A stretch of DNA of 64,000 nucleotides from Candidatus Campbellbacteria bacterium (GTDB lineage: Bacteria; Patescibacteriota; Minisyncoccia; Phycocordibacterales; EsbW-18): the NCBI GenBank assembly GCA_024653945.1, contig JANLIT010000002.1, forward strand, positions 11,940-75,939, written 5' to 3'. The translations under genes were made by a program, and so were the position numbers. Positions within the stretch are counted from its first letter, which is position 1. Each line of letters begins with the position of its first letter. The notes under the pieces are model-generated. The model had not been told where the DNA came from. It did not search any database and worked only from the letters and a program-made list of their open reading frames with translations. This document shows, piece by piece, positions 3,071 to 63,621 of the stretch.

Positions 3071-3083
3071 CTCTCCGCTCCTG

Positions 3084-3170
3084 CCCTATTTTTGAGAACA
3101 CGAAAACCGCCTGCTGGCGGTTTTCTCTCTCCGACGTCGCCACGCCTACAAAGTTTCTCAAAAATAGGGC
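3084..3170. repeat. palindromic terminator-like element (family also at 21444, 31153, 36855) directly 3' of infC
   Basis: ccctatttttgagaa...aaaaccgcc-tgct-ggcggtttt...ttctcaaaaataggg: outer inverted repeat enclosing a terminator hairpin. Confidence 0.6.
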
Positions 3171-3340
3171 TTCGCTACGTACACGCCGGACCCTGTATGC
3201 AACAGGCTCCGCCTATTAAAAATACAGAAACCACTTGCAAAAAGACAATAAAAATGTACTATGGGTAAGCCCATGTGGGCCTCTTTTTATGAGGACGGGG
3301 CTTCCAACCTCTCACTTCTAACCTCCAACTTCCACTTTAT

Positions 3341-3526
3341 ATGAAGACCAACAAAGCATATTCAAAACGACTTCGCATCACGAAAAACGGTAAGGTTATC
3401 GGCCGAAAAGCTGGTGGCAACCACTACAATGCTAAGGAGTCCCGAAGCACACAACTCGCACGCAAGCGTTCACGAATCATTTCACTTACACCAAAAATCC
3501 GCACGCGTTATTTGCCGTCAAAGTAG
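3341..3526 (+). CDS. rpmI: 50S ribosomal protein L35
   Basis: 61 aa basic protein MKTNKAYSKRLRITKNGKV..RKAGGNHYNAK between infC and rplT (conserved infC-rpmI-rplT order). Confidence 0.85.
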   Translation: MKTNKAYSKRLRITKNGKVIGRKAGGNHYNAKESRSTQLARKRSRIISLTPKIRTRYLPSK

Positions 3527-4012: not shown

Positions 4013-5827
4013 CTATTGATTCTTTTCCATAAAACCACTTACTTGCAAATCCCACAACTTCTTATACAAACCACTATCTTTGTTTGATAACTCATCGTGT
4101 GTTCCATCTTCAACAACTGAACCATTACCCATAACTATAATACGGTCCATTTTTTTCACAGTTGAAAGTCTGTGTGCAATAACAATCGTTGTACAGTCCT
4201 TCATAAGATTTTCTAAAGCACCCTGAATGAGCGACTCTGAGTATGAATCGAGACTTGACGTTGCCTCATCGAAAATAAGTATGGGAGCTTTTTTCAGTAT
4301 TGCTCGTGCGATAGCAACACGTTGACGTTCTCCCCCAGAAAGTTTTATTCCACGTTCACCAACAAACGTTTCATATTTCAAGGGCAAGGTATCAATAAAT
4401 TCATCGCAGTGTGCAAGACATGCGGCTTCCTTAACTTCTTCATCGGTAGCATCTCGACGACCATATCGAATATTTTCAATAAGTGTTCGATGAAAGAGGA
4501 CTGGGTCTTGAGGCACAAAACTGATGTTTTCACGGAGGGATTCCTGCGAAACAAGGCTGATATCTTGACTATCAATGCGTATTGAACCTTTTGTGAGGTT
4601 ATACAGTCGCATGATGAGCCGTACAAGGGTTGTCTTCCCAGCACCAGATGGACCAATAATAGCAACCTTTTCTCCTGGTTTAATGGTGAGGGTGATGTTG
4701 TGTAACACTTTATTATTTTCTCCAAACGCAAATGATATAGAGTCAAACACTATTTCACCTCGTGTCACAACTAACTTTTTTGCGTGTGGTATATTTTTGA
4801 TTTCATGCTTTGTAAGCAAAATATCAACCATCTCTTTTGAATCAGCGATACTTTGATAAATATTTCGAATTATTTTGTTGAGACCCCACAATTGGTTAGC
4901 AACACCAATAATGTACGTCTGTGCCAACACAAACGTACCTATCGTAATAAGACCAAGGCTCCAGTATCGTATCGCAAAGTAAAATACGAAAAATTCAACA
5001 ACAGATATCAGTAAAATTTGTATGGCATCTACAACGTTTCCCAAACGCCAAGAGAAGAGTATTTTTTGGGCCTGATCATTAGAAACTCCTTGGAAACCAA
5101 GTGATTCATGTTTATGGCCGGTGAAAAAAGATATCGCATTGTTGTTTGTTATAGAATCCGCCAAATACCCCGTGGTTCGAGAGTCAGCCTCAGCAACGGC
5201 CGTATCATATTTTAGTTTCCATGTAGAAAACACCACACTAAAGACAACAAATATGACAACCCACACCCCTAAAATAACAGAAATAACAGGAGCCACAGAC
5301 CATGTAATCCATATTGAACCAATAATAGTTATGGTAAGAGGCATCATATTAAAGGCCACGCTGTCAGTGAGAGCCTCAAACGCACGGCTGAAACGACCAA
5401 CCCTTTGAACAAGACTTCCACTAAAATTGTTAGCAAAAAAAGTATATGAATGCTCTATCATATAGGTAAAAGCATTCTGTTTTAAACGCGCCATAACACT
5501 GGACTGCATTTTTGTGAAAAAGTATGTTCCCGCTTGCCAAAAAAGTTGATTTCCTAAATGTAAAAATAAGATAATAAAAATTACTCTATTAAGATCTGAA
5601 ACTACAGAAACGGGGTCTGTGGATTTTCCAAGAATATCAAAAACGTCTTTGTAGTAGAGAGGAACAATAACGTTGACAATCTGAGCACAAAAAAAGAAGA
5701 CGTACGAAAAAACAAACCAGTTTTTCATTGGTCGTACACCATTCCAAAACTGGGTCATTATTTGACTAATGGAAATATTTTGACCTAATCTGCCACTTTC
5801 TTTCATAACCTTCACACTATACAACAA
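4013..5827 (-). CDS. ABC exporter, fused permease-ATPase (MsbA/bacteriocin-exporter type)
   Basis: 604 aa; N-terminal 6-TM domain; C-terminal NBD with Walker A GPSGAGKTT, signature LSGGERQRVAIARAIL, Walker B ILIFDEATSSLD, H-loop IAHRLST. Confidence 0.9.
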   Translation of the reverse strand: MLYSVKVMKESGRLGQNISISQIMTQFWNGVRPMKNWFVFSYVFFFCAQIVNVIVPLYYKDVFDILGKSTDPVSVVSDLNRVIFIILFLHLGNQLFWQAGTYFFTKMQSSVMARLKQNAFTYMIEHSYTFFANNFSGSLVQRVGRFSRAFEALTDSVAFNMMPLTITIIGSIWITWSVAPVISVILGVWVVIFVVFSVVFSTWKLKYDTAVAEADSRTTGYLADSITNNNAISFFTGHKHESLGFQGVSNDQAQKILFSWRLGNVVDAIQILLISVVEFFVFYFAIRYWSLGLITIGTFVLAQTYIIGVANQLWGLNKIIRNIYQSIADSKEMVDILLTKHEIKNIPHAKKLVVTRGEIVFDSISFAFGENNKVLHNITLTIKPGEKVAIIGPSGAGKTTLVRLIMRLYNLTKGSIRIDSQDISLVSQESLRENISFVPQDPVLFHRTLIENIRYGRRDATDEEVKEAACLAHCDEFIDTLPLKYETFVGERGIKLSGGERQRVAIARAILKKAPILIFDEATSSLDSYSESLIQGALENLMKDCTTIVIAHRLSTVKKMDRIIVMGNGSVVEDGTHDELSNKDSGLYKKLWDLQVSGFMEKNQ

Positions 5828-21014: not shown

Positions 21015-21443
21015 TTACAAACGAAAACTTCGACCTATGGGGGGCCGAAGTACTCGTGTGGGGGCTATCTCAGATGAGTTACCTAGCATGTGCTAGGTGG
21101 GTGTCCTAAGTACATACACCGGAGCGTATGGTTTGAAACAAAATCAGACTCCCTGTAACAATTAATTTGATCTAGATAATATCCAAAATAACCCCTACAC
21201 CAATCCTACTCCCTATCAAAGAACACTGACAAGGGGGATAATGCTTTGCACGACACTACACAAAAAAGTGAAGTATGTGTGTCAAAAAATCCGCCATGCA
21301 GACGGATTTTTTGTTTTGTCTGTTTCAAATAATTGACAGAAATTTTCTTTTTATTTGAGATGTGTATTTTTCTATCGTGTTTATGTCTTTTGAATTTAAA
21401 ATAGAACTTTTGTCTTACAAAAGTTCGTGTACGGAGCAAGCTT

Positions 21444-21525
21444 CTATTTTTGAAAGACTTTGAAGGCACGGCGGTGCCGGAGAGAGAAAACCGCCTGCTG
21501 GCGGTTTTCGTGCTTTCAAAAATAG
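21444..21525. repeat. palindromic terminator element (same family as 3084, 31153, 36855) directly 3' of ndk
   Basis: ctatttttgaaagactttgaaggcacggcggtgccggagagagaaaaccgcctgctggcggttttcgtgctttcaaaaatag. Confidence 0.65.
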
Positions 21526-22276: not shown

Positions 22277-25057
22277 TCAAATTTTATACATTGCGTTGAT
22301 TCCAGCTTCAAGTTCTTCGCGAGGACGGCCAAATTTTGCATAGGAAAGTTCCTTCAAGGTATCTACTTTCGTCATATCAGGTTTTTCTGGATACATGGTT
22401 GCGATTGAAAACGGTCGCTCTGTTTTATTTCGAACAAGCATCTTAAGGAATCCGTTGAAGTTGTCTACGTTCATCAAATCGTTTGCGGTAAACACGGGAG
22501 CGAACTGTTTTTCCAAAAATTCAGCATCATCAGAACCAACACGGAAGGAGCACATGGAACCGACGTTGCCAAAGACCGCGTCTTTAATTTTTTCATCCAA
22601 CTGTTTAATGTACTGATGAAAAATACTGAGTCCCAATTTGTATTTTCGTGCTTCCGAGAGAATGGTGGCGATTGAATTTGTGGTGATATTTTGAAATTCA
22701 TCAATGTAGAGATAAAAATTTGGAACATCTCCTTTGCCAACTGCATCAACGCGAGACAGTGCGGCCATGAGAATTTTTCCCACAATAATAAGTCCGACGA
22801 GGTTTGCGTTGATATCACCAAGTCGCCCCTTTGAGAGGTTTACTAAAAGAATTTTACGCTTGTCCATAATATCTCTGAAGTTAAATGCCGAATGTTTCTG
22901 CATCACAATAGGACGCATGATGTCATTGGCAAGAAAGATGTCAAATTTGCTCGTGATGTACGGAACCATGTTTGCAAGAGATGCTTCCCCACCCGCTTTT
23001 TCGGCAACTTCACGCCAAAATTGAACAACCACAGGATTTTTACATCTTGAGAGTTTCAAATCACGAAATGCTTTCTCTGACATGACACGCGACACATCAA
23101 ACAGTGTGTTGCCTGTATCAGGATCTTCAATCACGAGCATTGTCGCATTGCGGAAGTACTGCTCAAACATTGGTCCCATACTCTCAGGCACTCCTCCGTA
23201 CAATTTCTGGAAGATAGAAAAGAGTTCATTCACCACAAACGTCTTCTGTTCAGGGAACGCGGGGTCATATTCCAACATATTGAGTCCCATTGGACGTGCC
23301 GTGTACGCTGGGTCAAAATAAATAACGTCATCAAAACGCTCTTGAGGAACCGATGCGAGTACTTCCATAAGGTCGGTCCCGTGAGGGTCAATCATGCACA
23401 CACCTTCTCCATTCTTAATGTCCTGTATAATCATGTTTTTCAAAAGCGTCGTCTTTCCTGTTCCTGTCTGACCAATACAATAGAAGTGGCGCAACCGATC
23501 TCCCTCCGTCATGTAAATTGGCGTCTTGGTGTTACCGTACACGTTTTCGCCAAGCAACAAACCTTCAGTTGGCAAATCAACTGGTGCAGGAGAACCTCCT
23601 GCTTTTGCACGTTTGAGTTCACGCGATGAGTCACTTCCCACAGCAGGAACGTGGGCGAATGTTGCGAGCTCACGAAGATTCATGGGCAATATCTCATCTG
23701 TGGAGAAAAGTCGGAATGCAAATTCTTTTACCAATCCAGTGAGTTTTGTTTTAGTGAAGCGTGTAAACTTCAATGCGTTTCCACGCGGATCTTCAAGCTG
23801 GCTGAATGTTGCCTCAAGTTCAGACAAAATTGCATCTGAGCGCACTTGTGATGTTGATGACGCAAGGAGACGAATGTTTGTTTCAACGATGGTTTGGCTA
23901 AATTTTTGTTTGAGCTGTTCAATGGTGATGTCGTCCACTGGTCGCTCGCGCTCTTTTTCTTTTTTCTTGTCTTCTTTCTCTTTTGACGCAAAAAAGAATG
24001 AGTGCACCTCTTTACCAACTGACACGACAACCGATTTCTCTGCAAGCGCTTCCTTCATCGGCGTACCTTTCGCCATTTTTTCTATCACTTTTCGAATTTT
24101 GTCCGCATAATCGGTTTCTGCCGGTCGAATCAACACCTGCAATGCAGCGCCTTCACCAACGCGCAACAACTTTCCAAACGCCGACAAAAGAATCGTCAGT
24201 GGGTCGTAATCAAAATGTTCATGTGTTTTGAGAGGAAGCATATACGGCCGTGCGTATGCAGCAATAGAGCCGGCGGTTTTACCTTCTGGAAAGAAAATAT
24301 TGTAATCATTTTTGCGGTCGGCGACACGCGCTTGTGGAAAAATAGAGAGCAACTGTTTCTCAAAAATATCTTTCTTTTCCGTTGGTACCGACATATAGAG
24401 CGTGACGTGTTCAAGGTGCGCTTCAACAGCAAGTTCAATAGAGAAGTACTTTTTCTTTGAACCTTTTTCTGACGCAACTGAGAGTGCGCCGGCGTAGAGT
24501 TGTTCCATTGATGACAGGAGCTCTTTAAGCGGGCGTTGGTGCTCCTTTGCATCCTTGGCATCAAACGGGAGCGTTACCTCTAGGAGCGTCATGTGGAGCG
24601 CCTTCCAGAGTGGTTCGCCTTCTTTGATACCTTTTGTTATATATCCTTCTTTTAAGTATTCGGATAAAAAACGATGAAAGTCGTCTTCAACGTGCGGATT
24701 ATCCATTTTTTCAACAATAGACAGCGCATTACGTATTCCCTTTTCCTGCATTACCGAGAGAAGTTCAGCAATAATGGTATCGTGCTCCTCTGGGGCAAGG
24801 TCCAAAACAACGGCATCAATTTCTGGCTTCAGCATCTCGTGACCTTTCGCAAGCACTGTTTCTGGCGCATGCCCAGCATATGTGTGTATGACTTCTTTTT
24901 CTGGCGTTGGATGAGAGAGCTCGTGTGTTCCTGCATCTACATTTTTTTCAAGTTGTTTGAGTCGTTCACGCAAAAAATTCACCTCTTCATTGGGTGTGGT
25001 GAACTTTTTTTCAGGTGTCAAAGAGAACGTCTCCATATGCACTTTAGTATAGCGCAT
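22277..25057 (-). CDS. VirD4/TrwB/TraD-type coupling-protein-like P-loop ATPase with ~500-aa soluble N-terminal region (no TM helices)
   Basis: Walker A CIGQTGTGKTTLL followed ~25 aa later by MIDPHGTD (the GxTGxGKS...DPxG arrangement of type IV coupling proteins); Walker B FYLYIDEFQN. Confidence 0.65.
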   Translation of the reverse strand: MRYTKVHMETFSLTPEKKFTTPNEEVNFLRERLKQLEKNVDAGTHELSHPTPEKEVIHTYAGHAPETVLAKGHEMLKPEIDAVVLDLAPEEHDTIIAELLSVMQEKGIRNALSIVEKMDNPHVEDDFHRFLSEYLKEGYITKGIKEGEPLWKALHMTLLEVTLPFDAKDAKEHQRPLKELLSSMEQLYAGALSVASEKGSKKKYFSIELAVEAHLEHVTLYMSVPTEKKDIFEKQLLSIFPQARVADRKNDYNIFFPEGKTAGSIAAYARPYMLPLKTHEHFDYDPLTILLSAFGKLLRVGEGAALQVLIRPAETDYADKIRKVIEKMAKGTPMKEALAEKSVVVSVGKEVHSFFFASKEKEDKKKEKERERPVDDITIEQLKQKFSQTIVETNIRLLASSTSQVRSDAILSELEATFSQLEDPRGNALKFTRFTKTKLTGLVKEFAFRLFSTDEILPMNLRELATFAHVPAVGSDSSRELKRAKAGGSPAPVDLPTEGLLLGENVYGNTKTPIYMTEGDRLRHFYCIGQTGTGKTTLLKNMIIQDIKNGEGVCMIDPHGTDLMEVLASVPQERFDDVIYFDPAYTARPMGLNMLEYDPAFPEQKTFVVNELFSIFQKLYGGVPESMGPMFEQYFRNATMLVIEDPDTGNTLFDVSRVMSEKAFRDLKLSRCKNPVVVQFWREVAEKAGGEASLANMVPYITSKFDIFLANDIMRPIVMQKHSAFNFRDIMDKRKILLVNLSKGRLGDINANLVGLIIVGKILMAALSRVDAVGKGDVPNFYLYIDEFQNITTNSIATILSEARKYKLGLSIFHQYIKQLDEKIKDAVFGNVGSMCSFRVGSDDAEFLEKQFAPVFTANDLMNVDNFNGFLKMLVRNKTERPFSIATMYPEKPDMTKVDTLKELSYAKFGRPREELEAGINAMYKI

Positions 25058-31007: not shown

Positions 31008-31152
31008 TTCCTTCTCCTTTTTCCAAGGTCTATAGTTAAACAAATTCTGATAGGACAATACGCTTCTAGATAAGCAAAGTCAAACCAAACGTCCTTGTAT
31101 TTAAAGTCCCGCCCAGACATTGTCTGGGCGGGGCGTCGTACGAAGCGAGTCT

Positions 31153-31230
31153 CTATTTTTGAAAGACTTTGTAGGCACGGCGGTGCCGGAAAGAGAAAAC
31201 CGCCACCGGGCGGTTTTCGTGCTTTCAAAA
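31153..31230. repeat. palindromic terminator element directly 3' of secY
   Basis: ctatttttgaaagactttgtaggcacggcggtgccggaaagagaaaaccgccaccgggcggttttcgtgctttcaaaaata. Confidence 0.65.
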
Positions 31231-31249
31231 ATATGAGACGAGTGAAGAG

Positions 31250-32533
31250 CTAGTATTCACGTAATGACACTTGCGCGTCAATCTTTTTCACCAAATCAAT
31301 AATAACCGAGACGGCGATGAGGAGCCCTGTACCACCAACTGCAAGAGAGGTAATGCCAGTCAAACCTTGCATAATGAGAGGCAAAATAGCGATAACACCC
31401 AGAAATGAAGCGCCGAGAAGGGTTAACCGAGTGAGAATGTTTGCAATGTGTTCGGATGTTGATTGACCTGGGCGAACACCGGGAATAAACGCACCGCCCC
31501 GCTGAAGATTCTTTGAAATGGCATCTGGATCAAAGGTAACCGCGGTGTAAAAATACGTAAACAAAAACACAAGAAGGAAGTACGCGACACCGTACGACCA
31601 CCCATTATTCAAAAACCACTGCACGCCAGCAACCATCTTCTGCACGATTGGATTAGCAACTCCCGCAAGAAAGTTTGCAATCATACCTGGAAACAAGAGG
31701 ATGGAAAGCGCAAAAATGATTGGCATCACACCCGCTTGGTTCACGCGAAGTGGTAGGTATGTTGACACACCTCCGTATACTTTGTTGCCACGAATTTGTT
31801 TTGCGTAGGTAACAGGAATTGGTCGTTCTGCCTCTGTTACAATCACAACACCAATAACAATGATGAGTCCAACAACCAGAAAGGCGAGGTACATTGGCAA
31901 CTGTTCGGGTGTGAATGAAAATACGGTTGTTTGTAATGCGCTTGGAATACGTGACACAATACCTGCAAAGATGATGAGTGACATTCCGTTACCAATGCCA
32001 AATTCAGAAATAAGTTCACCAACCCACATGAGGAGTACCGAGCCCGCAACAATCACGATAATGTTGGTGATGAGTGACAAAGATGAGAGATCACCTATAA
32101 CCCCGTTTCGTTGGAGTAGTGTAATAAATCCAAATGCAGAGAGGGCGGCAAGTGGAACAGTGAGCAACCTAGAGTATTGTGCAATACGACGTCGTCCCGC
32201 CTCCCCTTCTTCATGAAACATCGCCTTGAGTTGTGGTGAAAGAATGGTGAGCAACTGCATGATGATTGAACCAGTGATGTATGGACCAACTCCGAGCATC
32301 ACAATTGAAAGACCTGAAAGTCCTCCTCCTGAAAAAAGGTTGAGAAGACCGAAAAATTGATTGTTTGCAAAAAACTGAGAAAGCGCATTAATATCAACAC
32401 CTGGAATTGGAATTGCGGCAAACACGCGCGTCAGTGCGAGTCCTGCAATAACAAAAAGAATGCGAGTTCGCAATTGGCGATCCCCCATAATAATGGAAAA
32501 TTTTTGTACAAAGTTTTTCATCATACGTAACAA
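31250..32533 (-). CDS. secY: preprotein translocase subunit SecY
   Basis: 10-TM SecY; likely true start is the MMKNF ATG near 32524. Confidence 0.9.
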   Translation of the reverse strand: MLRMMKNFVQKFSIIMGDRQLRTRILFVIAGLALTRVFAAIPIPGVDINALSQFFANNQFFGLLNLFSGGGLSGLSIVMLGVGPYITGSIIMQLLTILSPQLKAMFHEEGEAGRRRIAQYSRLLTVPLAALSAFGFITLLQRNGVIGDLSSLSLITNIIVIVAGSVLLMWVGELISEFGIGNGMSLIIFAGIVSRIPSALQTTVFSFTPEQLPMYLAFLVVGLIIVIGVVIVTEAERPIPVTYAKQIRGNKVYGGVSTYLPLRVNQAGVMPIIFALSILLFPGMIANFLAGVANPIVQKMVAGVQWFLNNGWSYGVAYFLLVFLFTYFYTAVTFDPDAISKNLQRGGAFIPGVRPGQSTSEHIANILTRLTLLGASFLGVIAILPLIMQGLTGITSLAVGGTGLLIAVSVIIDLVKKIDAQVSLREY

Positions 32534-33078: not shown

Positions 33079-33733
33079 TTTGTACGTTGTGCGTCTTAAT
33101 TTTCTTCGTGAGTTGTGAGAGTGCTTTAATTGTTGCGGTTGCGTTGTTGAGTTTGTTCTTACTACGAGAAAGAATCTTTGCACCAACACCACGAACTCCT
33201 GCGAGTTCAAGCACATCACGTACTGCACCTCCAGCAATAATACCGCGTCCTGGTGCTGGATAAAGCTTTACAATACCACTACTGTACTTCACTTGTACTT
33301 CGTGTGGAATTGAGCCGTCTTCAGTTTGTGAAATAACAATTTTATTTTTGAGTGCGCTTCGGTATGCCTTCTCTACTGCAAGTGCTGTGTCGCCCGCCTT
33401 ACCTGTGCCTACACCAACGGCACCACGGTGGTTTCCCGCAACAACACACACGCTGAAGCTAAAACGACGTCCTCCAGCAACCACACGAGTCACACGGCGA
33501 ATATCAATGATGCGCTGATCAAATTCAGGTTTAATACGGGGTGCGCGTCCGCGAGGAGTGCGACGAGAATTTTTCTGCATACGTCGGTCTTCACGTGATG
33601 CATTTACTGGCGCACTTCCTTTTGGAGCCACTACAACAACGTCTGCCTCAATGTCGGCAGCAAGTGTGTCCTCCACAACAGCGACCTCTGTTGTTTCAAT
33701 CTCGTTTTCTTTTGTACGAATATCGTCGGGCAT
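33035..33733 (-). CDS. rpsE: 30S ribosomal protein S5, with ~70-aa N-terminal extension
   Basis: core ..VTRVVAGGRRFSFSVCVVAGNHRGAVGVGTGKA..; no L30 gene between this and rplO. Confidence 0.9.
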   Translation of the reverse strand: MPDDIRTKENEIETTEVAVVEDTLAADIEADVVVVAPKGSAPVNASREDRRMQKNSRRTPRGRAPRIKPEFDQRIIDIRRVTRVVAGGRRFSFSVCVVAGNHRGAVGVGTGKAGDTALAVEKAYRSALKNKIVISQTEDGSIPHEVQVKYSSGIVKLYPAPGRGIIAGGAVRDVLELAGVRGVGAKILSRSKNKLNNATATIKALSQLTKKIKTHNVQKPKHEARSTKHETN

Positions 33734-33804
33734 AAATAATGGAAGTTGGAGGTTTGAGGTTAGAGGTTGGATGAGTTAGTGATTAGTTTTAGTTTGGTTA
33801 TTTG

Positions 33805-34835: not shown

Positions 34836-34970
34836 CTATTTTTAAATTCGAAATACGAATATCGAAATTCGAAACAAATTCGAAGTTATAGATTTTAAAG
34901 TTTTAAGCATTTGAATATTCATATTTTGTGCTTGTTTCGAGCTTCGTGCTTCGATATTCGTGCTTATCTT
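34836..34970. repeat. ~130-bp r-protein leader repeat upstream of rplF
   Basis: tttttaaattcgaaatacgaatatcgaaattcgaaacaa...catttgaatattcatattttgtgcttgtttcgagcttcgtgcttcgatattcgtgcttat. Confidence 0.65.
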
Positions 34971-35363
34971 CTACCAGATCATAAAAAGCACTTCTCCTCC
35001 AACCTTCGCCTTTCGAGCTTGCTGACCAGTCATAACGCCTTCTGGTGTTGAAAGAATGAGGTGTCCATAGCCGTTCTTCACTGGGTACACTTCTGTTGAG
35101 CCAATGTAGACACGACGAGAGGGTTTTGAAAGACGTTTTACTCCGTGAATGAGTGCGTCACCGTTTTCATCAAATGCGAGCGTTGCTTCAATTTTGTTTG
35201 TTTTCTTTCCTTTGTGGTCAACGTTTGCAAGGTATCCTTCTTTTTTGAGAACAACTGCAACAGCGTCTTTAAGACGTGAGTGCGGAACAGAGACGGTCTC
35301 AACACCAACACGTGCTGCGTTTTGAAGAGCTGTTATGAAGTTTGCGAGTGGGTCGGTGGTCAT
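34971..35363 (-). CDS. rpsH: 30S ribosomal protein S8
   Basis: MTTDPLANFITALQNA..; C-terminal ..GGEVLFMIW. Confidence 0.9.
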   Translation of the reverse strand: MTTDPLANFITALQNAARVGVETVSVPHSRLKDAVAVVLKKEGYLANVDHKGKKTNKIEATLAFDENGDALIHGVKRLSKPSRRVYIGSTEVYPVKNGYGHLILSTPEGVMTGQQARKAKVGGEVLFMIW

Positions 35364-35414
35364 GGTAGTAAGTAGTATGTAGAAAGTAGTAGGTAGAAAG
35401 TAGTAAGCAAAAAA

Positions 35415-36854: not shown

Positions 36855-36897
36855 AAGAAAACCGCCTGCTGGCGGTTTTCGTGCTTCTACAAAATAT
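36855..36897. repeat. partial palindromic terminator element directly 3' of rplE
   Basis: gaaaaccgcctgctggcggttttcgtgcttctacaaaatatgag; shares the ttcgtgctt..aaaatatgagacgag tail with 31200-31240. Confidence 0.55.
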
Positions 36898-36912
36898 GAG
36901 ACGAGCGGAGAG

Positions 36913-37485
36913 TTATTTTTTAGCTGGTGTCTTCTTTGCTTTCACTTCTCCCGCTTTCTTAAAGGGAATGCCGATGTATTCAAGGTATTTCTCTGCTGTT
37001 TCTTTATTCTTTGCAGTCGTTACGATACTTACCGCGAGACCAAACACATCTCGAATTTCTTCGTCAGCTGTTTCAGGGAAAATAGTGTGCTCCTTAATAC
37101 CAATTGTGATGTTTCCCATCGGATCAATAGAATCGCGCTCAATACCACGAAAGTCGCGGGTACGAGGAAGTGCAATGTTGATGAGGCGGTCAAGAAAATC
37201 GTACATGCGGTCACCACGAAGTGTAATTTGGTATCCAATCACTTGTCCTTCGCGAAGTTTAAATGATGCAATTGATTTCTTAGCAACACGTCCAGCTGGT
37301 TTCTGTCCGGTAATCTTCATCAAACGGTCTTGAATCACTTCAATCTTGTTTTTGTCCTTTGCTGAACCCGTACCAACAGACACAATGACCTTGGAAACAC
37401 GGGGAACGGCCATCGGGTTTTTTACACCCAGTGTTTCTTTGAGGGCCTCAAATGCTTTATTCTGTTTTTCTTTTACGGTAAGCAT
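36913..37485 (-). CDS. rplE: 50S ribosomal protein L5
   Basis: 190 aa, L5 family. Confidence 0.9.
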   Translation of the reverse strand: MLTVKEKQNKAFEALKETLGVKNPMAVPRVSKVIVSVGTGSAKDKNKIEVIQDRLMKITGQKPAGRVAKKSIASFKLREGQVIGYQITLRGDRMYDFLDRLINIALPRTRDFRGIERDSIDPMGNITIGIKEHTIFPETADEEIRDVFGLAVSIVTTAKNKETAEKYLEYIGIPFKKAGEVKAKKTPAKK

Positions 37486-47639: not shown

Positions 47640-47758
47640 TTTTTTGAATTTTTTTGTATTTAACATACGAAGTGAGCCTATTACAACAAAGAAACTCTCG
47701 GAGCCCGATGAGGGTGAGAGTGAGTGCGTTTTCAGTAGAAAACGACACGTGTTCTTTG
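47640..47758 (+). repeat. dispersed ~100-nt element (candidate small RNA / cassette-border repeat): ..tttaacatacgaagtgagcc..aaactctcggagcccgatgagggtgagagtgagtgcgttttcagtagaaaacgacacgtg
   Basis: homologous copies at 51588-51700 (opposite strand), 53340-53400 (3' part) and 41670-41712 (5' part). Confidence 0.55.
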
Positions 47759-47780
47759 TTGTAAGTAGGTGAGCGGAGAG

Positions 47781-51403: not shown

Positions 51404-51587
51404 AGTATTGTTAAATTAATTTAAATTATACGTAATAATCAGTTTTTAATGATTTTCAGGATGTGTGCCTGAACACCGTGCCACAAGGGCAGTTTTTCGA
51501 CTTTTAATGTCTTTAATGATAGCACCGCAAGGAATGTCCTTTAATGCCCCTGTGGACAACTCTACGCTCGCCCCGCCCTTCCACAAA

Positions 51588-51700
51588 CACGTGTCGTTTT
51601 CTGCTGAAAACGCACTCACTCTCGCCCTCACGGGCTCCGAGAGTTTTGTGTATAGGGCGGGGCTCGTTCCGTACCACGAATTTTTGTTGCTACAAAAATT
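51588..51700 (-). repeat. dispersed ~100-nt element, copy 2 (orientation opposite to 47640-47758)
   Basis: cgtgtcgttttctgctgaaaacgcactcactctcgccctcacgggctccgagagttttgtgtatagggcggggctcgttccgtaccacg. Confidence 0.55.
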
Positions 51701-51819
51701 CTGTAAAAAGAAAACAATTGACAGATACTGTTTTCAGGCGTACGTTTGCGACAGAACATACGCAGGTTAACGCATGTATCCTCTTGAGCCTTGGCTAGGA
51801 GGAAGAAAGGGTCCATCCA

Positions 51820-52494
51820 ATGAACGCTGGAGAACTGAAGGTATTGGTGGGAAAGTGTTTCGGACAATTTTTCCTCAAAATCTGGACATCCGTGGCTTTG
51901 GTGGCCATCGGCACGGTCATACTCGGCATCGAACTTTTCGTACGTGAGAGTGGGCCGAATCTTTTTCTTTTCCTTATCGGGGTAATACTCATCGTTTGGG
52001 GGCTTGCTCTCTCGATACGGTTCACCAACAAGCTGAGGGGGCTCCGACGGACCCTGGCCGAGTACGAGGAGGCGTGGCGCACACGGATGTGGACGGGAGG
52101 AAATCTCGGTCTTGTGATTTCTTCTCTCGTGGAAAACCGTCTGGTGGATATGTGGCAGCGGGGCGTCTTTGCCGAAGAGCTGGTTAAGACACTTGGTGTC
52201 GGCCCATACCAAGTGGATGCTCTTTTCGAGGTGCCGTTCACGAATGGGGACATTCGCGATGAAGAGGTTGATTTACAGACCGGGTTGGGATGGCTACTCC
52301 ACGGTAAGTATCTCGTTCCGGCGGAGCACGGCTTTGGGGCGTTCGTCTGGTCGGACACGAAGGTGTACGAGAAATTCTTCGCACTTCCAGAGAATAGGAT
52401 GCGCGACGACTTCGACCCGAACAAGGAACCCGAGCTTCTCGACGCCGTGCGCGATGGCCGTGTTTCACTCCCCGGTGGTGTAAAAATCACCTAA
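51820..52494 (+). CDS. GC-rich membrane-anchored hypothetical protein (224 aa)
   Basis: 2 N-terminal TM helices; AGGAGG upstream; terminator cccgag..ctcggg after the stop, plus palindromic ggaagccaggcttcc hairpins. Confidence 0.5.
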   Translation: MNAGELKVLVGKCFGQFFLKIWTSVALVAIGTVILGIELFVRESGPNLFLFLIGVILIVWGLALSIRFTNKLRGLRRTLAEYEEAWRTRMWTGGNLGLVISSLVENRLVDMWQRGVFAEELVKTLGVGPYQVDALFEVPFTNGDIRDEEVDLQTGLGWLLHGKYLVPAEHGFGAFVWSDTKVYEKFFALPENRMRDDFDPNKEPELLDAVRDGRVSLPGGVKIT

Positions 52495-52597
52495 ACTGCA
52501 CTGCTCTTTTCACGAAGAACCCGAGTTCGCTCACGCGACCTCGGGCTTTCTTTTTGGAAGCCAGGCTTCCCCGTTGGAAGCCTGGCTTCCAAAAATG

Positions 52598-53152
52598 CTA
52601 CAACCCCAATTTATTCACTAATTTTCGATGCGGATAGTCAAACACATCGCGCAGGAGTTTGTCATTCATGCTCGTGCGGTAGGAAAAATCTTTTGTTGAA
52701 AATGCAGAGTAGCGAATGTCAGTTCCGCATTCCGCTTCAAGTTGTGTGATTGCTTTTGCTAATGCTTTATCATCAATTCTATCGGCAATAACAAGCACAT
52801 CCGTTCGTGAATCTTCTTCTTCAATAAAAATACCAGACACAACAAGTAATTTGAGTGCACCACATTTTGAAACACGTGACACCACAGGTACATCTGCAAG
52901 CATGTTGCCGAGCATGAGGTGTTTCACACTCATCATGTGTGGAAATTCTGGGTTGAGTAACCATCCACGTGCGCGTTTTTTAAGAAAGCCTGCTGACTTC
53001 AAACGCGCGAGTGGTGTCTTGAGCGACGATGATACAATACTTGTTTTTTCAGCAAGCGTTGCTGTCCCGTAGATACCTTCTGGGTGAAACAGAAAAAAAC
53101 GCATCAGTCGAACCGGCGCACTTCCTCCAAATAATTTTGCGAGTAGATCCAT
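52598..53152 (-). CDS. hypothetical protein, possible winged-helix regulator
   Basis: 184 aa; weak HTH-like segment; low confidence on function. Confidence 0.35.
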   Translation of the reverse strand: MDLLAKLFGGSAPVRLMRFFLFHPEGIYGTATLAEKTSIVSSSLKTPLARLKSAGFLKKRARGWLLNPEFPHMMSVKHLMLGNMLADVPVVSRVSKCGALKLLVVSGIFIEEEDSRTDVLVIADRIDDKALAKAITQLEAECGTDIRYSAFSTKDFSYRTSMNDKLLRDVFDYPHRKLVNKLGL

Positions 53153-53319
53153 CCCGATAGTGTTATATGCCGAATAATATGTAGAACCTTACAATACTCT
53201 TTTCTATTAAAATACCATGATACACGGGTCACTGAAAAAACTATCGGGATCCATACAAGAGTTAGTATACCCTCCTTTTAAAACAAAAACACCCCTTTTG
53301 GGGGTGTTTTTATGCACTT

Positions 53320-53645
53320 TTGTGCTGAAAAAGATTACTTCAAAGTTACATGTCACGCGTCGTTTTCTATTGAAAACGCGCTCGGAGCCTCCTTCGGCAC
53401 AACCTACTGGTTGCCCACCTCAATGAGTACATTGTTATAACCAAGTTACAAATCTACTAATTTGCCTACTGGGTCGCACCGTCGTGCTCCGTCTCAAAGT
53501 GACTCTATTTGAGAGTCACTTTGCCACGAGTTTCTAGCTTCCTCATTGTGCTTCGCACAATTCCGTCGCAAGAACTCTCGGCCCCGTCTCGGTGCTCTCT
53601 CCTGCTTACGCAGGCGCACCTGCGACCGAAAAGTAACTTTGAAAT
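53320..53645 (-). ncRNA. candidate structured non-coding region (~300 nt, ~52% GC) between the rplL stop and an intrinsic terminator (53290-53318)
   Basis: several perfect hairpins (aaagtgactct-attt-gagagtcacttt; gcagg-tgcg-cctgc), bounded by inverted repeats ttacttcaaagttac / gtaactttgaa; contains the 3' module of the dispersed element (cgcgttttcaatagaaaacgacgcg). Confidence 0.25.
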
Positions 53646-54140
53646 TTATTTTAAAGTTACCTTTCCGCCGGCTTCCTCAATCTTCTTCTTCATAACCTCT
53701 GCATCTTCTTTCTTCACTGCCTCCTTGATAACGCCAGGTGCGCCATCAACGAGATCCTTTGCTTCCTTGAGACCAAGACCTGAAACTTCCTTCACAGCCT
53801 TGATAACAGCAATCTTGTTCTCCCCAACTGATGTAAGTTCAACAGTGTACTCGCTCTTTTCATCTGCACCTGCTGCACCTGCTGCAGGAGCTGCTGCGAC
53901 AGCAACTGCTGACACCCCAAACTTTTCCTCAAACACCTTCACGAGTCGGTTCAAATCCAACACGCTCATTTGTTCAATTGCGTCAATAATTTTCTTGAAC
54001 TCGGCTGGAATTGCTACATCCGCAGTTTTCTCTACTGTCTTTGCAACTGGCTTGTCCGCCACAGCTGGGGTTGTTGTTTCCTCTACTGGCTTGTCCGCCG
54101 TAGCATCTGCGGAGGCGGAAGTTTTTGTTTGTTCATCCAT
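53646..54140 (-). CDS. rplL: 50S ribosomal protein L7/L12, with ~35-aa N-terminal extension
   Basis: ..[70 protein letters not shown]; ATG at 54140. Confidence 0.85.
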
Positions 54141-54281
54141 ATGTATTAGGTTAAATTCGAAATTCAAATATCGAAATCCGAGACAATATCTCATTTTCTA
54201 AATCAAAATGTTTTAAACATTTGTACATTAGAATTTTGAATTTGTTTCGTGTTTCGTACTTCGATTTTCGTGCTTATAGTA
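54141..54281. repeat. ~130-bp r-protein leader repeat upstream of rplL
   Basis: ttaaattcgaaattcaaatatcgaaatccgagacaatatctcattttctaaatcaaaatgttttaaacatttgtacattagaattttgaatttgtttcgtgtttcgtacttcgattttcgtgcttat. Confidence 0.6.
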
Positions 54282-54782
54282 TTATTTCTTTTCTGCAATG
54301 GCACCAAGCGCAATAACCAATCGTTGAATTGGCGAGTTAATGACGTTGGCAAACATTCCACGCAATACTGTTTGTGAAGGAATTGTTGCAATCTCAAGCA
54401 TGCGCTCGCGATTCAAAAATTCACCATCAAAAATACCACCGAGAATACCGAGGTGTCCTTCAAATTTTTTCTGGAACGTGTAGATGTTTCGCGCTGGTGC
54501 TGTTGTATCAACTGCGTCTGCACTTTGTGGATATGCGATTGCTACCTCACCATCAAGCGCAGGAATATCTCCCTTTGCTTTTGAACTTGTGAGTGCTTTC
54601 TTGATGAGTGTCTTTTTTGCAACAGTGTATCCAACGTCATTTGCTTTCAACTCTTTTCGAATTTCCATAGCATCACGCACCGTGAGACCGTGGAAGTTAA
54701 CAAAAACAGCCGAGGGAACACGCTTAATGATGTCCTGAAGCTTTTCAAGAATTGTTTCTTTTTGCTTTCGTGTAATTGGCAT
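54282..54782 (-). CDS. rplJ: 50S ribosomal protein L10
   Basis: 166 aa L10 family. Confidence 0.9.
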   Translation of the reverse strand: MPITRKQKETILEKLQDIIKRVPSAVFVNFHGLTVRDAMEIRKELKANDVGYTVAKKTLIKKALTSSKAKGDIPALDGEVAIAYPQSADAVDTTAPARNIYTFQKKFEGHLGILGGIFDGEFLNRERMLEIATIPSQTVLRGMFANVINSPIQRLVIALGAIAEKK

Positions 54783-55042
54783 ATGTTTTTTGTGTTAAAC
54801 AAAAAAACGGCTACAAGTGCCGCCGCTCTAAGAGTGGTCGACCTCAGTAGGACCTCTGACTCTTGTACGTGTGAGTCTGCCTACTTTCTCCGGCCTTGTG
54901 AAAACAACTATACTCAATCCCTCTCATAAATGCAACATCCCATGCGCAAAGCCCCGCTCGAGTACGAGCGGGGCTTTCCTTACTACTTACTACTTCCTAC
55001 TTTCTACTCTTGGCTTTCTACCTACTACTTTCTACTTCCCAC

Positions 55043-58000
55043 TTATCTTTCTTCAACATCTGGATCATCAAGCTCTGAATTGTCGAGTGGGTCTGCACAT
55101 CCTGGATCTACTGGGCCACCCGCTCCATCAAAATCCTTTAGCCCATCGCCATCATTATCAAATGTGTCATTACACTGTGCAATAGGGAGATCTCGCTCAT
55201 CGTTGTCTTCAGTAGTTGTACATCCGGGGTCAGCTGGGTAATCAATGAGGCCGTCGGGTGTACTTTCATTGTCCTCACCGTCACGACACTGTGGAATAGG
55301 TGCATCATATTCAGTCGGATCACATAATGCTCCGATACATGATGTTGGACACAGTGCCGGATTGTCACTTTGGCACGAACCACATCCCGGGTCATTATCA
55401 TCTGGAGTTAAAAGATTTCCATCTGCACCTGCAAAATCAATAAATGCATCCCCGTCATCGTTGTTTATCTCATCAAAACATTCCGCGTAGTGCACATCGA
55501 CAGTGACCGAGTCAGAGATTTCAAGACCGTTATCAATATTGGTGCAGGTAAGTGTAAACACTGTATTGTCGGCCATAATCACACCGCTTGCCTCGCTACC
55601 GTCATCCGTTTTTGCACCAATCCAGTTTGGTACACCTCCAGTGCCTTCGCAGTTTTGTACATTTGTCGTCTCCCACGTAAGGTTTACTGGGACACCGATG
55701 AGAACATCAACTGGAACGGAAACATTATTCACATACAAATTTACGGTGCCCGAGGATGCATCTGGTGTGTAGGTAAGATTGAAGGTAATTGAACCACCTA
55801 AAGATGAAATTGTTTGTGAATGAGTTGGTAACACAAGATTTTTTGCACTCCTCACCACAAGAGTATATCCGGGTTTGTCTGCTGAAATTGTATAGTCATA
55901 CCCTCCTAGAATATCTCCGTATGATATAGGACCGATTATTTGGCCTGGTTCGTGTATCAAAACGGGACCAGTGATGTCCCACGCTGTTGGTATGTTTGAC
56001 CTTACGATAATATTTCCAACCACATCCACAGAACATTGAGCAGTTAATGAGTTGCTTGTAACGGTCACGGTTTTTGGTGTTCCTTCGGTTATGTATGTTG
56101 TTACACAAGAAGAACCAAATGAATTACATGCGGTTCCGCCACCCACACCACCATTGCTGGTATCCCATGTGTATGTTCCGTTACCTCCGCCTGCAGTGAG
56201 AGTGACGGGAACTTCAACACCTATGGGTTGGGTTGCGGGTGAACATGTTGGACCCACGTTCACCGTCACACTTGCGGGTGCACTCGTTCCTCCTGGGCCA
56301 GAACAGGTAATTGTAAATGTTGTTGCGCTGGTAAGTGCTATTGATGTGTCTGAACCCGCTGGTGTGTTGGCAGGAATAACAAAACCTGACGTTCCTCCAG
56401 CGGTCACCGAACACGATGTTGCATTTGTTGAACTCCAGTTAAGTGTTGCGGTGGTGTTATAAGTAATAGGATTTGCTGTCGCGGTGAGTGTTGCTGTTGG
56501 TGTGATATTCACAAGAACACTATCCGTTGCGCTTCCCCCTGCGTTTGCACAGGTGATTGTGTATGTCCGTACGGTCGCGCCGTTTGCAATACTTGTCTGC
56601 GCATACGTACCATTGGGAGAGTATGTTTTTGAACCAGTCCACCCCGTAACCGCCGGTGATGCTGATGCCGTACATGACGTTGCATTTCCAGAAACTATCC
56701 ATTGCAAATCAACGTTTGCTCCTCCGGCAGGAAGTGACAATGGACCTTCACCATATGAACTACCGCCTGACTGTTTTCCTTGAAGATTAACGGTTGGTGC
56801 TGGGAGTGCAGTAATCGTCAGATTAAATGTATCCGAACGAACAGTTGCTCCTGATGTACCAGTAACGGTAATGGGGTAGGTACCTGCAGTAGCAGTTCCA
56901 CTATTAATCGTCAATATAGGCGCGGGCGTACACGTCAGGTTTGGTGTACAAGGTGTTGAAGAATATGAAGCAGATGCACCACTTGGAATTCCTGATGACG
57001 TGAGCGCAACAGAGGCTGCAGTTCCTGCTGTTTTTGTAACGGTGATTGTGTTGGTGACCGATAGTCCTTGCACGACACTTTTATCGCCTGCGTCTGCCAC
57101 CGTGAAGTTGAAGGCTGGTGCAGTCACGATAACTCGGCAGGATTCAGATTCATTAGTCCAAGGAGTGGGGAGCTCTGACCAAGGTTCATTTGAGCCTTTT
57201 CTTACCCTAACATCATAGGTCCCTTGAGTTGAAAACGTACGGGTACATGATTGGGTAGAACACGCCGTTGTTCCACCGTCCATATCCCATTGGTATGTTG
57301 TGCCGATACCCCCAGAGGCCGTAAGTGTGACACTGCTTCCAGCTGTGATTGATGAAGAAAGTGGTGAACAGGATGCAATACATCGAGGTACGGAACCCGT
57401 CTTTGCGGCGTACAAATAATCGGTATAATCAGGAGGATTTGGAGCTCCATCTGACACAAGGTCAATTTGATACGCACAGTTCACCGGAGAACCCGACGAG
57501 GGATATGGTACCGAGAAAGTGTGAGAGTAGCCCGCTCCTGTTCCTGATGTGTCCGGTAGCATTGTAAACGAAGTGATACTTTTCCGGATTTGTGTGGAAA
57601 GATAATCGGAAGCACCCCACGCCCTGAACACATACCAAGACACCAGACTCACAGGGAACGAACAACGGGGAGATGTGTTCTTCACCGTGATTGACGCCTG
57701 ACCAGTGGCTGGGTTGGTTGTTATCTTATCGCTATCGGGATAGGAAAAGGATTGGCCATCTACACCTTTAATATAGCTATCAGGATTACAGGCAATAGTT
57801 GTCGGCGTACACGTTTTGTCTCCACCAGACATAGTAACCGAACCACCCACACAGTTAGAGGAAGCTGTCCATCCGCCCCAATCTGTCCCATCCCCAAAAT
57901 AACCAGTTAAAGATACAACCGTGTTGGCATTATACGTTTCTGTACAATTTGTGTGGCCCGAAACATTACCACAATCAATACCGTTACCACCAGAAACTCC

Positions 58001-62118: not shown

Positions 62119-62295
62119 CCATGGTGTTAGTGCAGAGAGGAATGTCGCGCCAGAATGGTCGCGATTTTTGTTTAAAGTATTGGGTTAGGTGTTGGCAATT
62201 AGTTTTGGTTTAGTTTTTTATTCTTAATACATACTACTTTCTACATACCACTTTCTACTTACTACATTCTACTTACTACTTAACCCTATCCACAT

Positions 62296-63621
62296 ATGCC
62301 ATTTGATATCAAAGCACTTACCACAGTCCTCGGAGAACTTGAGGAAGAGCGGGGTGTTACAAAAGAAAAAGTTATGGAGGCAATTGAATTTGCTCTCGCT
62401 ACTGCGTACAAAAAAGAGTACGGCAAGCGTGACCAGGTTGTGCGTGCACGATTTGACATCAACACTGGTACGACAGAGTTTGAACAAATCAAAACAATTG
62501 TTGATGATTCGACTGTTCGCTTCAAAGAAGACGCGGATGACGAAATTTTAGAAGAAACGGATGCATCACAAACAAAAAAAATTCTTGTTGCAACAGGCGA
62601 TGCTCCACGTGCTACAGATGTTGTTGAGGATGAAATAAAACTTCCCCTTTTCAACACTGAAAAGCACATGTTGCTTGAAGATGCGAAGAAAATTAAAAAA
62701 GATGCAAAAGTTGGTGATGAGATTGTATTCCCTCTTGAAATGCATGACGACTTCGGACGCATCGCCGCACAAACTGCAAAGCAGGTTATCATTCAAAAAA
62801 TTCGCGAGGCAGAAAAAGAGCACCTCTCACATGAATATGGTGAACGTGAAGGAGAAATTCTGTCCGGAACGGTGCAACGCGTTGAGCGCGGAAACGTGTT
62901 TGTAGACCTTGGACGCGCCGTTGGAATCTTGCCCTACGATGAACAAATTCCTGGTGAACGATTCCGTGCGGGCGAACGTATTCGCGCATATCTTTTTAAA
63001 GTTGAGGAAACACCTCGTGGCGTCTTTTTGCGCATGTCACGTTCACACCCACAATTTCTCGTTCGTCTTTTTGAAAACGAATCACCAGAAGTTGCACAAG
63101 GTGTTGTTGAAATAAAAGCAATCGCACGCGAGCCGGGAAGTCGTTCAAAGGTTGCGGTGTTCTCAAACGATGAACACATTGATCCTGTTGGTTCGCTTGT
63201 TGGACAACGCGGTGTTCGTGTTTCAACTGTCATGTCTGAACTCGCTGGAGAAAAAATTGATGTTATTGAGTGGTCCGAAACCGCCGAGCACTTTATTGAA
63301 GATGCACTCTCTCCGGCAAAAGTGTTGTCTGTTGAAATTGTTGACGAAGAAACACATAGCGCAGTTGTTCGCGTAACCGAAGACCAGCAATCACTTGCCA
63401 TCGGACGCGGAGGACAAAACGTTCGTCTCGCAGCAAAATTGACAGGATGGCGCATTGATATCCGCTCCGCCGGCACAGAAGAAGGTGCCGAAGATGGTGA
63501 AACGGAAGGAGCGTCTGAAATTTCAAAAGAGGCAGACCAACCATCCGAAACCGAAGTTTCAAAGGATGAAACAACTACACCCGAAAAAGAAACTGGCACT
63601 CCTGAAAAAGGGGACAAATAA
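62296..63621 (+). CDS. nusA: transcription termination/antitermination factor NusA with acidic C-terminal tail
   Basis: N-terminal domain, S1, two KH (..IGRGGQNVRLA..). Confidence 0.9.
   Translation: MPFDIKALTTVLGELEEERGVTKEKVMEAIEFALATAYKKEYGKRDQVVRARFDINTGTTEFEQIKTIVDDSTVRFKEDADDEILEETDASQTKKILVATGDAPRATDVVEDEIKLPLFNTEKHMLLEDAKKIKKDAKVGDEIVFPLEMHDDFGRIAAQTAKQVIIQKIREAEKEHLSHEYGEREGEILSGTVQRVERGNVFVDLGRAVGILPYDEQIPGERFRAGERIRAYLFKVEETPRGVFLRMSRSHPQFLVRLFENESPEVAQGVVEIKAIAREPGSRSKVAVFSNDEHIDPVGSLVGQRGVRVSTVMSELAGEKIDVIEWSETAEHFIEDALSPAKVLSVEIVDEETHSAVVRVTEDQQSLAIGRGGQNVRLAAKLTGWRIDIRSAGTEEGAEDGETEGASEISKEADQPSETEVSKDETTTPEKETGTPEKGDK

Follow-up and report, generated by a model that had tools for sequence, protein, structure and literature searches.

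Copies of the rplL gene end and pairing-conserving hairpins in the rplL 3' spacer of a Candidatus Campbellbacteria genome

A strongly folded block of sequence lies directly behind rplL, the gene for ribosomal protein L7/L12, in a 64,000-nt stretch of DNA (the window) from Candidatus Campbellbacteria, a member of the Candidate Phyla Radiation (CPR, or Patescibacteria). Is this block an RNA gene, a regulatory leader or a part of the rplL message? The interval in question, 53153-53645, is the entire spacer from the rplL stop to the start (53152) of a conserved open reading frame (ORF) of 184 aa on the minus strand. A first-pass annotation, made from the letters of the window, had left three options: a relic of an rpoB leader, an unrecognised non-coding RNA (ncRNA) or a long structured 3' untranslated region (UTR). 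Only the last of these fits. The block combines copies of the rplL end, inverted as well as direct, with hairpins that conserve their pairing; it evolves fast, and among close relatives it is variable and dispensable. We suggest, as the probable explanation, that the block is a composite, mosaic, cis-acting 3' UTR of rplL that arose by repeated replacement or duplication of the gene end.

Two pieces of background make the question relevant. Divergent RNase P, signal recognition particle (SRP) or 6S RNAs are a frequent object of searches in CPR genomes. L7/L12 is present in 4-6 copies per ribosome, the one multi-copy ribosomal protein, and its stoichiometry needs special expression control. A literature search returned nothing specific to such an rplL feature.

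Composition of the block and its fossil gene ends

The core block (53645-53335, minus strand) consists of 311 hairpin-rich nucleotides with a GC content of 48.9%, compared to 35.7% in the remaining 182 nt of the interval and 44.2% on average in the window. The value of ~52% given earlier is too high for the core, as 52-54% is reached only by 100-nt windows in 53500-53650. Folding of 53650-53275 gives -153.4 kcal/mol on the minus strand (z = -9.8, 100 dinucleotide shuffles) and -130.7 kcal/mol on the plus strand (z = -8.7). Perfect stems of 12 bp (53523-53495) and 7 bp (inside 53379-53354) are present in addition to that of the terminator, in agreement with the hairpins reported before. The block is also, as had been noted, bounded by an inverted repeat, 53339-53354 and 53628-53643 (16 nt, 88%, with a perfect 11-bp core TTCAAAGTTAC/GTAACTTTGAA). 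Both arms of this repeat are copies of the rplL tail. This origin of the repeats had escaped the first-pass annotation, as had two embedded fossil termini and a separate insertion that resembles a MITE, a miniature transposable element with inverted repeats.

At the 3' side, a predicted intrinsic terminator is located at 53311-53280 (minus strand, AAAAACACCCCC-AAAA-GGGGTGTTTTTGTTTT), with an 11-bp stem, AAAAACACCCC/GGGGTGTTTTT, followed by GTTTT. A simple terminator scan missed it because the U-run lies partly within the stem. It is, judging from the comparison with relatives that lack the block, where it sits directly 3' of the stop codon, the ancestral rplL terminator. The earlier claim that the region ends at a terminator therefore stands, while the structured part does not run on to 53153 but ends at ~53280.

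The relatives show how the block relates to the simple arrangement. Related loci, here given L-numbers, were retrieved through rplL and the 184-aa ORF. A metagenome scan with the 184-aa protein added two loci, of which L088 is the informative one, and two DNA pattern scans of viral contigs gave no match. In L082, L083/84, L085/91/92/94, L087, L088 and L102-107 the same terminator is found 10-40 nt past the rplL stop, whereas in the target, i.e. the locus of the window, it lies 335 nt 3' of it. Since rplL directly precedes the terminator in these close relatives, the block is an insertion or expansion and the simple arrangement is the baseline. Blocks at the same site measure ~145 nt in L081, ~90 nt in L095/L096, ~120 nt in L097-L101 and ~90 nt in L090. 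Spacers with copies of the rplL tail, whether direct or inverted, are confined to element-bearing genomes. The 5' part of the target block (tail, inverted copy, hairpin H1 and linker) aligns with L081 at 81%; the target is thus an L081-like unit placed before a complete L095-like element, plus one extra hairpin module. Neither the 64-kb window nor ~700 kb of related loci contains the body of the block a second time; only a hairpin module of 26-30 nt recurs there.

Two earlier ends of rplL are preserved inside the target block, see Table 1 for the positions of all parts. Relic 2 is recognised from the match of 53525-53474 to positions 140-191 of L095 (86.5% over 52 nt, E=3e-11, blastn), a segment that in L095 comprises the functional rplL end, the stop-codon hairpin and the next hairpin, GCACGACGGTGC. 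The last seven codons of relic 2 are intact (GGC AAA GTG ACT CTC AAA TAG, GKVTLK-stop) and its likeness to rplL can be traced upstream to ~53554. The hairpin formed by relic 2 and its own inverted copy, H3, has the geometry of the live stop-codon hairpins of L095 and L097 and differs from the L095 hairpin in two compensated pairs. Relic 3, at the 3' boundary, is the oldest fossil rplL end. The inverted copy A1', which begins at the first base past the functional stop codon, can alternatively pair perfectly (11 bp) with relic 3 and thereby close the block.

The same layering is found in other genomes. The rplL gene of L095 is 92% identical to that of L083 over 127 nt, and then only 70% identical in the last 33 nt; the relic downstream of it equals the native L083 tail at 15/15 positions. 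The relic of L090 is 95% identical to the L095-type tail, and the order of the tail types in L095 is opposite to that in L090. L097 retains a VNLK-stop relic, and L012 and L025 contain tandem units. The duplicated tail segments start from ~15 to ~50 nt before the stop, with varying breakpoints. In L095, as well as for relics 2 and 3 of the target, a direct repeat of the gene end flanks the insert, with the divergent new end 5' and the native end 3', as would be expected of the attL/attR scar of an integrative element. No integrase or recombinase domain was detected in the flanking ORFs tested (neighbouring ORFs only), and no fixed core site is seen. Self-similarity alone finds relic tails in L081 and L012 only, against background scores of up to ~23; the other relics are cross-genome matches.

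Hairpins that keep their pairing

Every element-bearing genome repeats its own last rplL codons in inverted form, starting at the base after the stop or at the stop codon itself. The tail and its inverted copy are GTAACTTTAAAA and TTTCAAAGTTAC in the target, GGTAACCTTGAAAT and ATTTCAAGGTTACC in L081, CAAGGTCACTCT and AGAGTGACCTTG in L095, CAAAGTCAATCT and AGATTGACTTTG in L097, and GGTAAAGTTACGC and GCGTAACTTTACC in L090. Distant CPR metagenome-assembled genomes (MAGs) are built likewise, with a perfect stem of 20 bp in L012 and one of 13 bp in L025; in the distant lineages a Shine-Dalgarno-like CGGAGG(U) and a second hairpin come after the stop-codon hairpin.

The three loop geometries of the hairpin precluded a single consensus structure on the MAFFT alignment, and the pairs were therefore tallied per codon position by a script, in 8 instances from at least 6 CPR lineages. 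The 11 core pairs (Lys-1 to Leu-2) are paired in 88/88 cells, one of them as G-U. At least two types of Watson-Crick pair occur at 7 positions, with four types at Val-3, Thr-3 and the preceding Gly-3 and three at Lys-3. Even the replacement of Thr by Asn in L097 is compensated in the inverted copy. It thus appears from the sequences that the stop-codon hairpin keeps its base pairs via compensatory substitutions, although the sample is small and maintenance at the DNA level is also possible.

The feature is concentrated at rplL in CPR genomes. Among 103 rplL loci, hairpin scores of at least 24 occur exclusively in CPR genomes and all other loci reach at most 18. When 386 ORF ends from 17 CPR loci are compared, those of rplL make up most of the upper ranks. 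Of the window's ORFs with 100 aa or more, only rplL and one other have a stop-spanning palindrome of such length, and rplL alone has a left arm that is coding throughout. As a separate observation, hairpins of this kind with a coding left arm are also located at ~4290-4330 and ~4700-4740 of L002, another Campbellbacteria MAG, at the ends of a 399-aa ORF, the size of EF-Tu, and of the 115-aa ORF that follows it. The phenomenon may extend to other highly expressed genes.

Compensatory changes are not limited to the stop-codon hairpin. The GC-rich hairpins H1 and H4 and those with CCAGTAGG have orthologues in relatives, in which the pairing is retained. The L081 orthologue of H1 reads AGCGC-G-CGTCC-TGT-GGACG-AGTAA-GCGCT, and between the target and L081 four of the ten pairs are compensatory and none is disrupted, with the bulge and the asymmetric loop retained. 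L095 and L097 have in common a hairpin tipped by GCC-AGCA-GGC, the lower stems of which covary; GGCAACC-AGTA-GGTTGTGCC in the target resembles it by positional homology, with weak sequence likeness. In 7/7 elements the sense strand folds more stably than the antisense strand (23 versus 13 G-U pairs).

One hairpin of the block is dispersed, as the first-pass annotation had recognised: GCGTTTTCAATAGAAAACGAC (53379-53359) has two further copies in the window, where none is expected by chance. A Y-shaped element of ~62 nt has the 26-nt module 53379-53354 as its second hairpin, with copies of the module at 47726-47751 (plus strand) and 51613-51588 (minus strand); its first hairpin occurs in the L081 block. 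The two conserved hairpins of the Y-shaped element are 95% identical between copies and stand inside long closing stems of unrelated sequence. One copy sits in a non-coding leader of 200-280 nt that is conserved 5' of an MscS-like channel gene in all relatives. No Rfam match to the element was found; a regulatory RNA that acts in cis and a small, mobile hairpin element are both conceivable. A hammerhead-like CYGAUGAG in the dispersed element was rejected, as the other copy has a plain GUGA tetraloop there. An internal-loop motif, NNN-GGA-stem-GA-NNN, that seemed common to the 3' UTR hairpins and the dispersed element is not enriched in the window (9 occurrences, ~6.7 in shuffles).

Origin and possible role of the block

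We suggest that the 5' side repeatedly gained new gene ends, each event leaving the old end behind as a fossil. Three findings speak for this: the new tails are foreign in their synonymous codons, the breakpoints vary, and the tail types stand in opposite order in L095 and L090. Candidate routes would be unequal or one-sided homologous recombination with divergent alleles, or a tandem duplication promoted by the palindromes. The block would be transcribed together with rplL as far as the conserved terminator, so that any action would be in cis on the rplL mRNA. The inverted copy right after the stop would let the mRNA form a long hairpin with the stop codon in its loop. As the left arm is coding, this first hairpin would need the last codons to be unoccupied by ribosomes, and it would therefore be sensitive to translation. 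Most plausibly, the hairpins would serve as a barrier or a processing structure for the 3' end of the mRNA.

Several points weigh against this explanation. Transcription through the block is deduced solely from the absence of an earlier canonical terminator, and recombination is a proposed mechanism. The stems are almost without G-U pairs or mismatches; one would expect this of palindromes that are young or kept at the DNA level rather than of RNA helices under long selection. Close relatives manage without the block, thus any function must be dispensable, and the relics decay in L012, L081 and L095. Finally, the comparison covers ~6 independent lineages, among which phylogenetic non-independence is possible.

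The near-perfect stems would also suit a neutral scar at the DNA level. The palindrome and the repeated tails would then be by-products of unequal recombination and of template switching or fold-back replication, at a site prone to palindromes. The RNA would be functionless, and its perfect stems would be kept by templated quasi-palindrome correction and not by selection. Only two G-U pairs in ~110 cells, the patchy distribution even at ~92% identical rplL, the fossil arrays and tandem units, and a module common to a locus 2 kb away that resembles a templated insertion all agree with such an origin. However, templated correction would erase the asymmetry of H1, whose pairing is kept via four compensatory changes despite the asymmetric loop and the bulge. 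Neither the recurrence specifically at rplL in distant CPR lineages nor the sense-strand folding advantage in all seven elements is expected from a scar, and we regard this explanation as rather unlikely. The order of the parts (tail, inverted tail, body, direct tail copy) would also suit a small, non-autonomous mobile cassette that targets the rplL 3' end and brings a replacement end, with the tail copies as terminal repeats or attachment scars. The foreign synonymous codons of the new L095 tail, the native tail retained 3' of it as compared to L083, the reversed tail order in L090 and a 273-aa gene inserted at the same spot in other lineages speak for it. Still, the body is single-copy in all sequence compared, the flanking ORFs tested encode no recombinase or transposase domain, and the breakpoints follow no fixed core site, which makes a cassette improbable.

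A free-standing, unrecognised ncRNA gene of ~300 nt with a P1-like closing helix could account for the strong folding z-score, for this helix and for the covariation in H1. We give it very little credence: the closing helix is merely the inverted tail copy pairing with relic 3, and half of the block is recognisable fossil rplL coding sequence. A housekeeping RNA should be present in close relatives, but the block is absent at the locus in L082-L085, L087, L088 and L102-L107 and ranges from ~90 to 311 nt, with highly variable content, elsewhere. At E<=10 the sole Rfam matches in 52900-53900 are to the terminator hairpin, from terminator-containing families that each score less than half of the gathering score; at the gathering score the whole window has no match, be it to RNase P, SRP, 6S, tmRNA, an L10 leader, group I or II introns or riboswitches, and ARAGORN found no tRNA or tmRNA. 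A sigma-70 promoter scan of 52400-55000 found none, a low-sensitivity result that is uninformative because the same scan overlooked the obvious terminator. Relatives do not conserve any of the small ORFs of the block, which encode 41 aa (minus strand) and 69 and 42 aa (plus strand), and the plus-strand ORF 53509..54201 is, as stated before, spurious and antisense to rplL. Thus an independently transcribed RNA gene is not supported, and the block is no missing housekeeping RNA, which removes a false lead. Even less is to be said for a relic of the rplL-rpoB leader or attenuator, for which we see next to no chance. Its position after rplL and the terminator at its end would fit. However, rpoB does not follow rplL in the target, as the first-pass annotation had noticed (nor is RpoB encoded by either of the two largest ORFs elsewhere in the window), nor in any relative. 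The ancestral state is rplL followed directly by a terminator, and the sequence derives from the tail of rplL itself.

Three other ideas were discarded. A group I intron, with P1-like pairing of a 5' exon and guide and with relic 3 as exon, has no Rfam hit, would have a 'P1' of 13-23 bp, and the gene is complete without splicing. For the template and variable repeats of a diversity-generating retroelement, the repeats are only 15-50 nt, their differences are not adenine-specific and there is no reverse transcriptase nearby. Integron attC sites and IS200/IS605 elements do not fit by their core motifs, and duplications of 15-50 nt are incompatible with them.

Beyond a mosaic 3' UTR, it can tentatively be speculated that the stop-codon hairpin is a previously undescribed, rplL-specific device of CPR bacteria, one arm made of the last codons, the stop in the loop and the whole co-evolving with the synonymous codons, which acts either as a cis-regulator or as the attachment structure of a cassette. 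The device might be a new translation-coupled 3' cis-regulator of L7/L12 output, or it might serve to attach a miniature cassette of a new kind, one that replaces gene ends and, by acting again and again, leaves layers of fossil rplL termini.

Neighbouring features and known systems

The start codon of the 184-aa ORF is the exact site of the separate insertion of ~100 nt (53153-53250, minus strand). It has inverted ends of 12-14 nt, CCCGATAGTTTT (53248-53237) and AACACTATCGGG (53164-53153), which form the inverted repeat I6 of 14 nt with 93% complementarity, and ATGGAT is duplicated around it (53254-53249 and 53152-53147). L081, L082, L083, L095 and L102 have an empty site, a contiguous TATACT...ATGGAT start region. 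It thus has the inverted ends, the target-site duplication and the empty site of a MITE, although it is single-copy among the sequences compared. The insertion parts the 184-aa ORF from its TATACT promoter and start region, and what is left at the old start is an upstream ORF of 15 codons.

The 184-aa ORF, which has no Pfam domain, follows rplL in the target and most relatives; a few have a 273-aa ORF or another gene instead. The rplL product is 99% and the 184-aa protein 100% identical to proteins of one NCBI MAG. For rplL more than one start codon can be read, giving 138 aa in NCBI but 164 or 182 aa as ORFs. In L7/L12 (53646-54194) a ~45-residue N-terminal extension precedes the dimerisation domain (Pfam), whose first residue is number 49 if the 164-aa version is taken. 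In some lineages a gene of 273/274 aa stands between rplL and the 184-aa ORF, with a signal-peptide-like N-terminus, no Pfam domain and its own terminator and promoter. The A-rich right edge of this gene may be a decayed rplL tail. Given these insertions, the rplL 3' end looks like an insertion hot spot.

Another variable spot is 51404-52597, where the target has an opposite-strand 224-aa ORF (weak match to an NfeD membrane domain) between the 184-aa ORF and the MscS-like gene; it is missing from L081, and other relatives carry different small ORFs at that site. A 926-aa ORF (22277-25057, minus strand) weakly matches a type IV secretion coupling protein (PF02534, E=1.4e-6). Many intergenic spacers are occupied by 7-nt-periodic, G-poor tracts (CCAACYT, CTACTTT and TTCGTGC types), often directly 5' of start codons. 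A dispersed element of ~100-120 nt, found in both orientations, contains GTACGGAGCRAGC and a terminator-like hairpin, GAAAACCGCC...GGCGGTTTTC.

Table 1. Positions of the parts of the rplL 3' spacer and of other features in the target and in related loci
Feature	Locus	Position	Strand	Basis
A1: last 8 codons of functional rplL, GGC GGA AAG GTA ACT TTA AAA TAA; left arm of stop-codon hairpin	target	53646..53669	minus	ORF, Pfam, fold
A1': inverted copy of rplL end, ATTTCAAAGTTACTTTTCGGTCG; right arm of stop-codon hairpin	target	53623..53645	minus	inverted repeats I1, I5
H1: GGTGC-G-CCTGC-GTAA-GCAGG-AGAGA-GCACC	target	53591..53620	minus	alignment to L081, folds
Linker GAGACGGGGCC (GAGGCGAGGYC in L081 and L095)	target	53580..53590	minus	alignments
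Relic 2: fossil of about the last 50 nt of rplL	target	53505..53554	minus	blastn to L095, alignment, translation
H3: relic 2 and own inverted copy, perfect 12-bp stem, loop CAAAT	target	53495..53523	minus	fold, inverted repeats
H4: GCAC-GACG-GTGC	target	53476..53487	minus	identical to L095 hairpin following the stop-codon hairpin
Short hairpins, two with CCAGTAGG; includes GGCAACC-AGTA-GGTTGTGCC	target	53396..53473	minus	folds, alignment
Hairpin module GCGTTTTCAATAGAAAACGACGCGTG, common to Y-shaped element	target	53354..53379	minus	repeat search
Relic 3 (A''): GTA ACT TTG AAG TAA (VTLK-stop), 3' boundary repeat	target	53335..53349	minus	translation
Small conserved hairpin GCACAAAAGTGC and predicted intrinsic terminator	target	53280..53325	minus	relatives, fold
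Separate MITE-like insertion, ~100 nt	target	53153..53254	minus	empty site in relatives, inverted repeat I6
rplL	target	54140/54194-53646 (stop codon 53648-53646)	minus	ORF, Pfam L12 domains
rplJ	target	54782-54282	minus	
Y-shaped element	target	47690-47753 (within 47676-47770)	plus	
Y-shaped element	target	51646-51586 (within 51663-51571)	minus	
Y-shaped element	L085	6949-7016		
Y-shaped element	L081	2960-3162		
Y-shaped element	L083	5985-6259		
Dispersed ~100-120-nt element with GTACGGAGCRAGC	target	3063-3185, 21426-21525, 31138-31257, 36856-36921		
7-nt-periodic tracts, examples	target	3302-3344, 33731-33776, 34838-34968, 35361-35404, 54972-55045, 62195-62296		
273/274-aa gene insertion	L082	4451-5495		
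273/274-aa gene insertion	L085	4454-5565		
273/274-aa gene insertion	L091	2889-4000		
273/274-aa gene insertion	L094	728-1837		

How does the rplL block compare with systems already described? In bacterial 3' UTRs, REP/BIME-type and terminator-proximal hairpins act as stabilising or processing stem-loops. The rplL hairpins are similar to these in that they are stable, lie between stop and terminator, are presumably co-transcribed, vary between strains and are partly reusable modules. They differ in that one arm consists of the gene's last 4-6 codons and covaries with the synonymous choice. Moreover, the rplL block is single-copy, not a genome-wide repeat family, and it holds fossil gene ends. 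In E. coli, the rplL-rpoB spacer contains an attenuator and an RNase III site, i.e. also a structured RNA directly after rplL. Unlike that attenuator, the block has no downstream rpoB and no sequence or Rfam similarity, and it is lineage-specific.

The replacement of gene 3' ends by integrating elements is known from e14 and phage 21 in E. coli icd and from islands in tRNA and tmRNA genes. As with e14 and phage 21, the functional end is foreign in its synonymous pattern and the native end persists 3' as a direct repeat (L095 versus L083), and, as with integrating elements, serial events yield arrays of relic ends. However, the rplL insert is only ~90-150 nt, carries no integrase or cargo, has unfixed breakpoints and always includes an inverted tail. 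MITEs such as Correia, ERIC/IRU and RUP are, similarly to the main block, short and non-coding, with terminal inverted repeats (perfect over 11 bp here) and a presence/absence polymorphism. Unlike them, the main block is single-copy in the sequence compared and lacks a target-site duplication of short, fixed length, and its 'terminal repeats' copy the adjacent coding sequence. Quasi-palindrome template switching and homology-facilitated illegitimate recombination are mechanisms and not elements. They could yield inverted copies, perfect stems, nearby templated insertions and one-sided replacement anchored in a conserved gene, but they leave the preference for rplL in several distant CPR lineages unexplained.

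A functional hairpin would add a new cis-element to the control of L7/L12; a product of recombination would preserve a legible history of how uncultured CPR lineages exchanged DNA at a conserved anchor gene. The block also shows that annotation pipelines can take fossil gene ends and palindromes for structured RNAs. Structured 3' UTRs and gene-end duplications are each of a kind already known. What is unusual here is the hairpin that tracks the codons, so that coding sequence and 3' UTR co-evolve base by base across the stop, and the stacking of earlier ends of an essential gene behind the current one.

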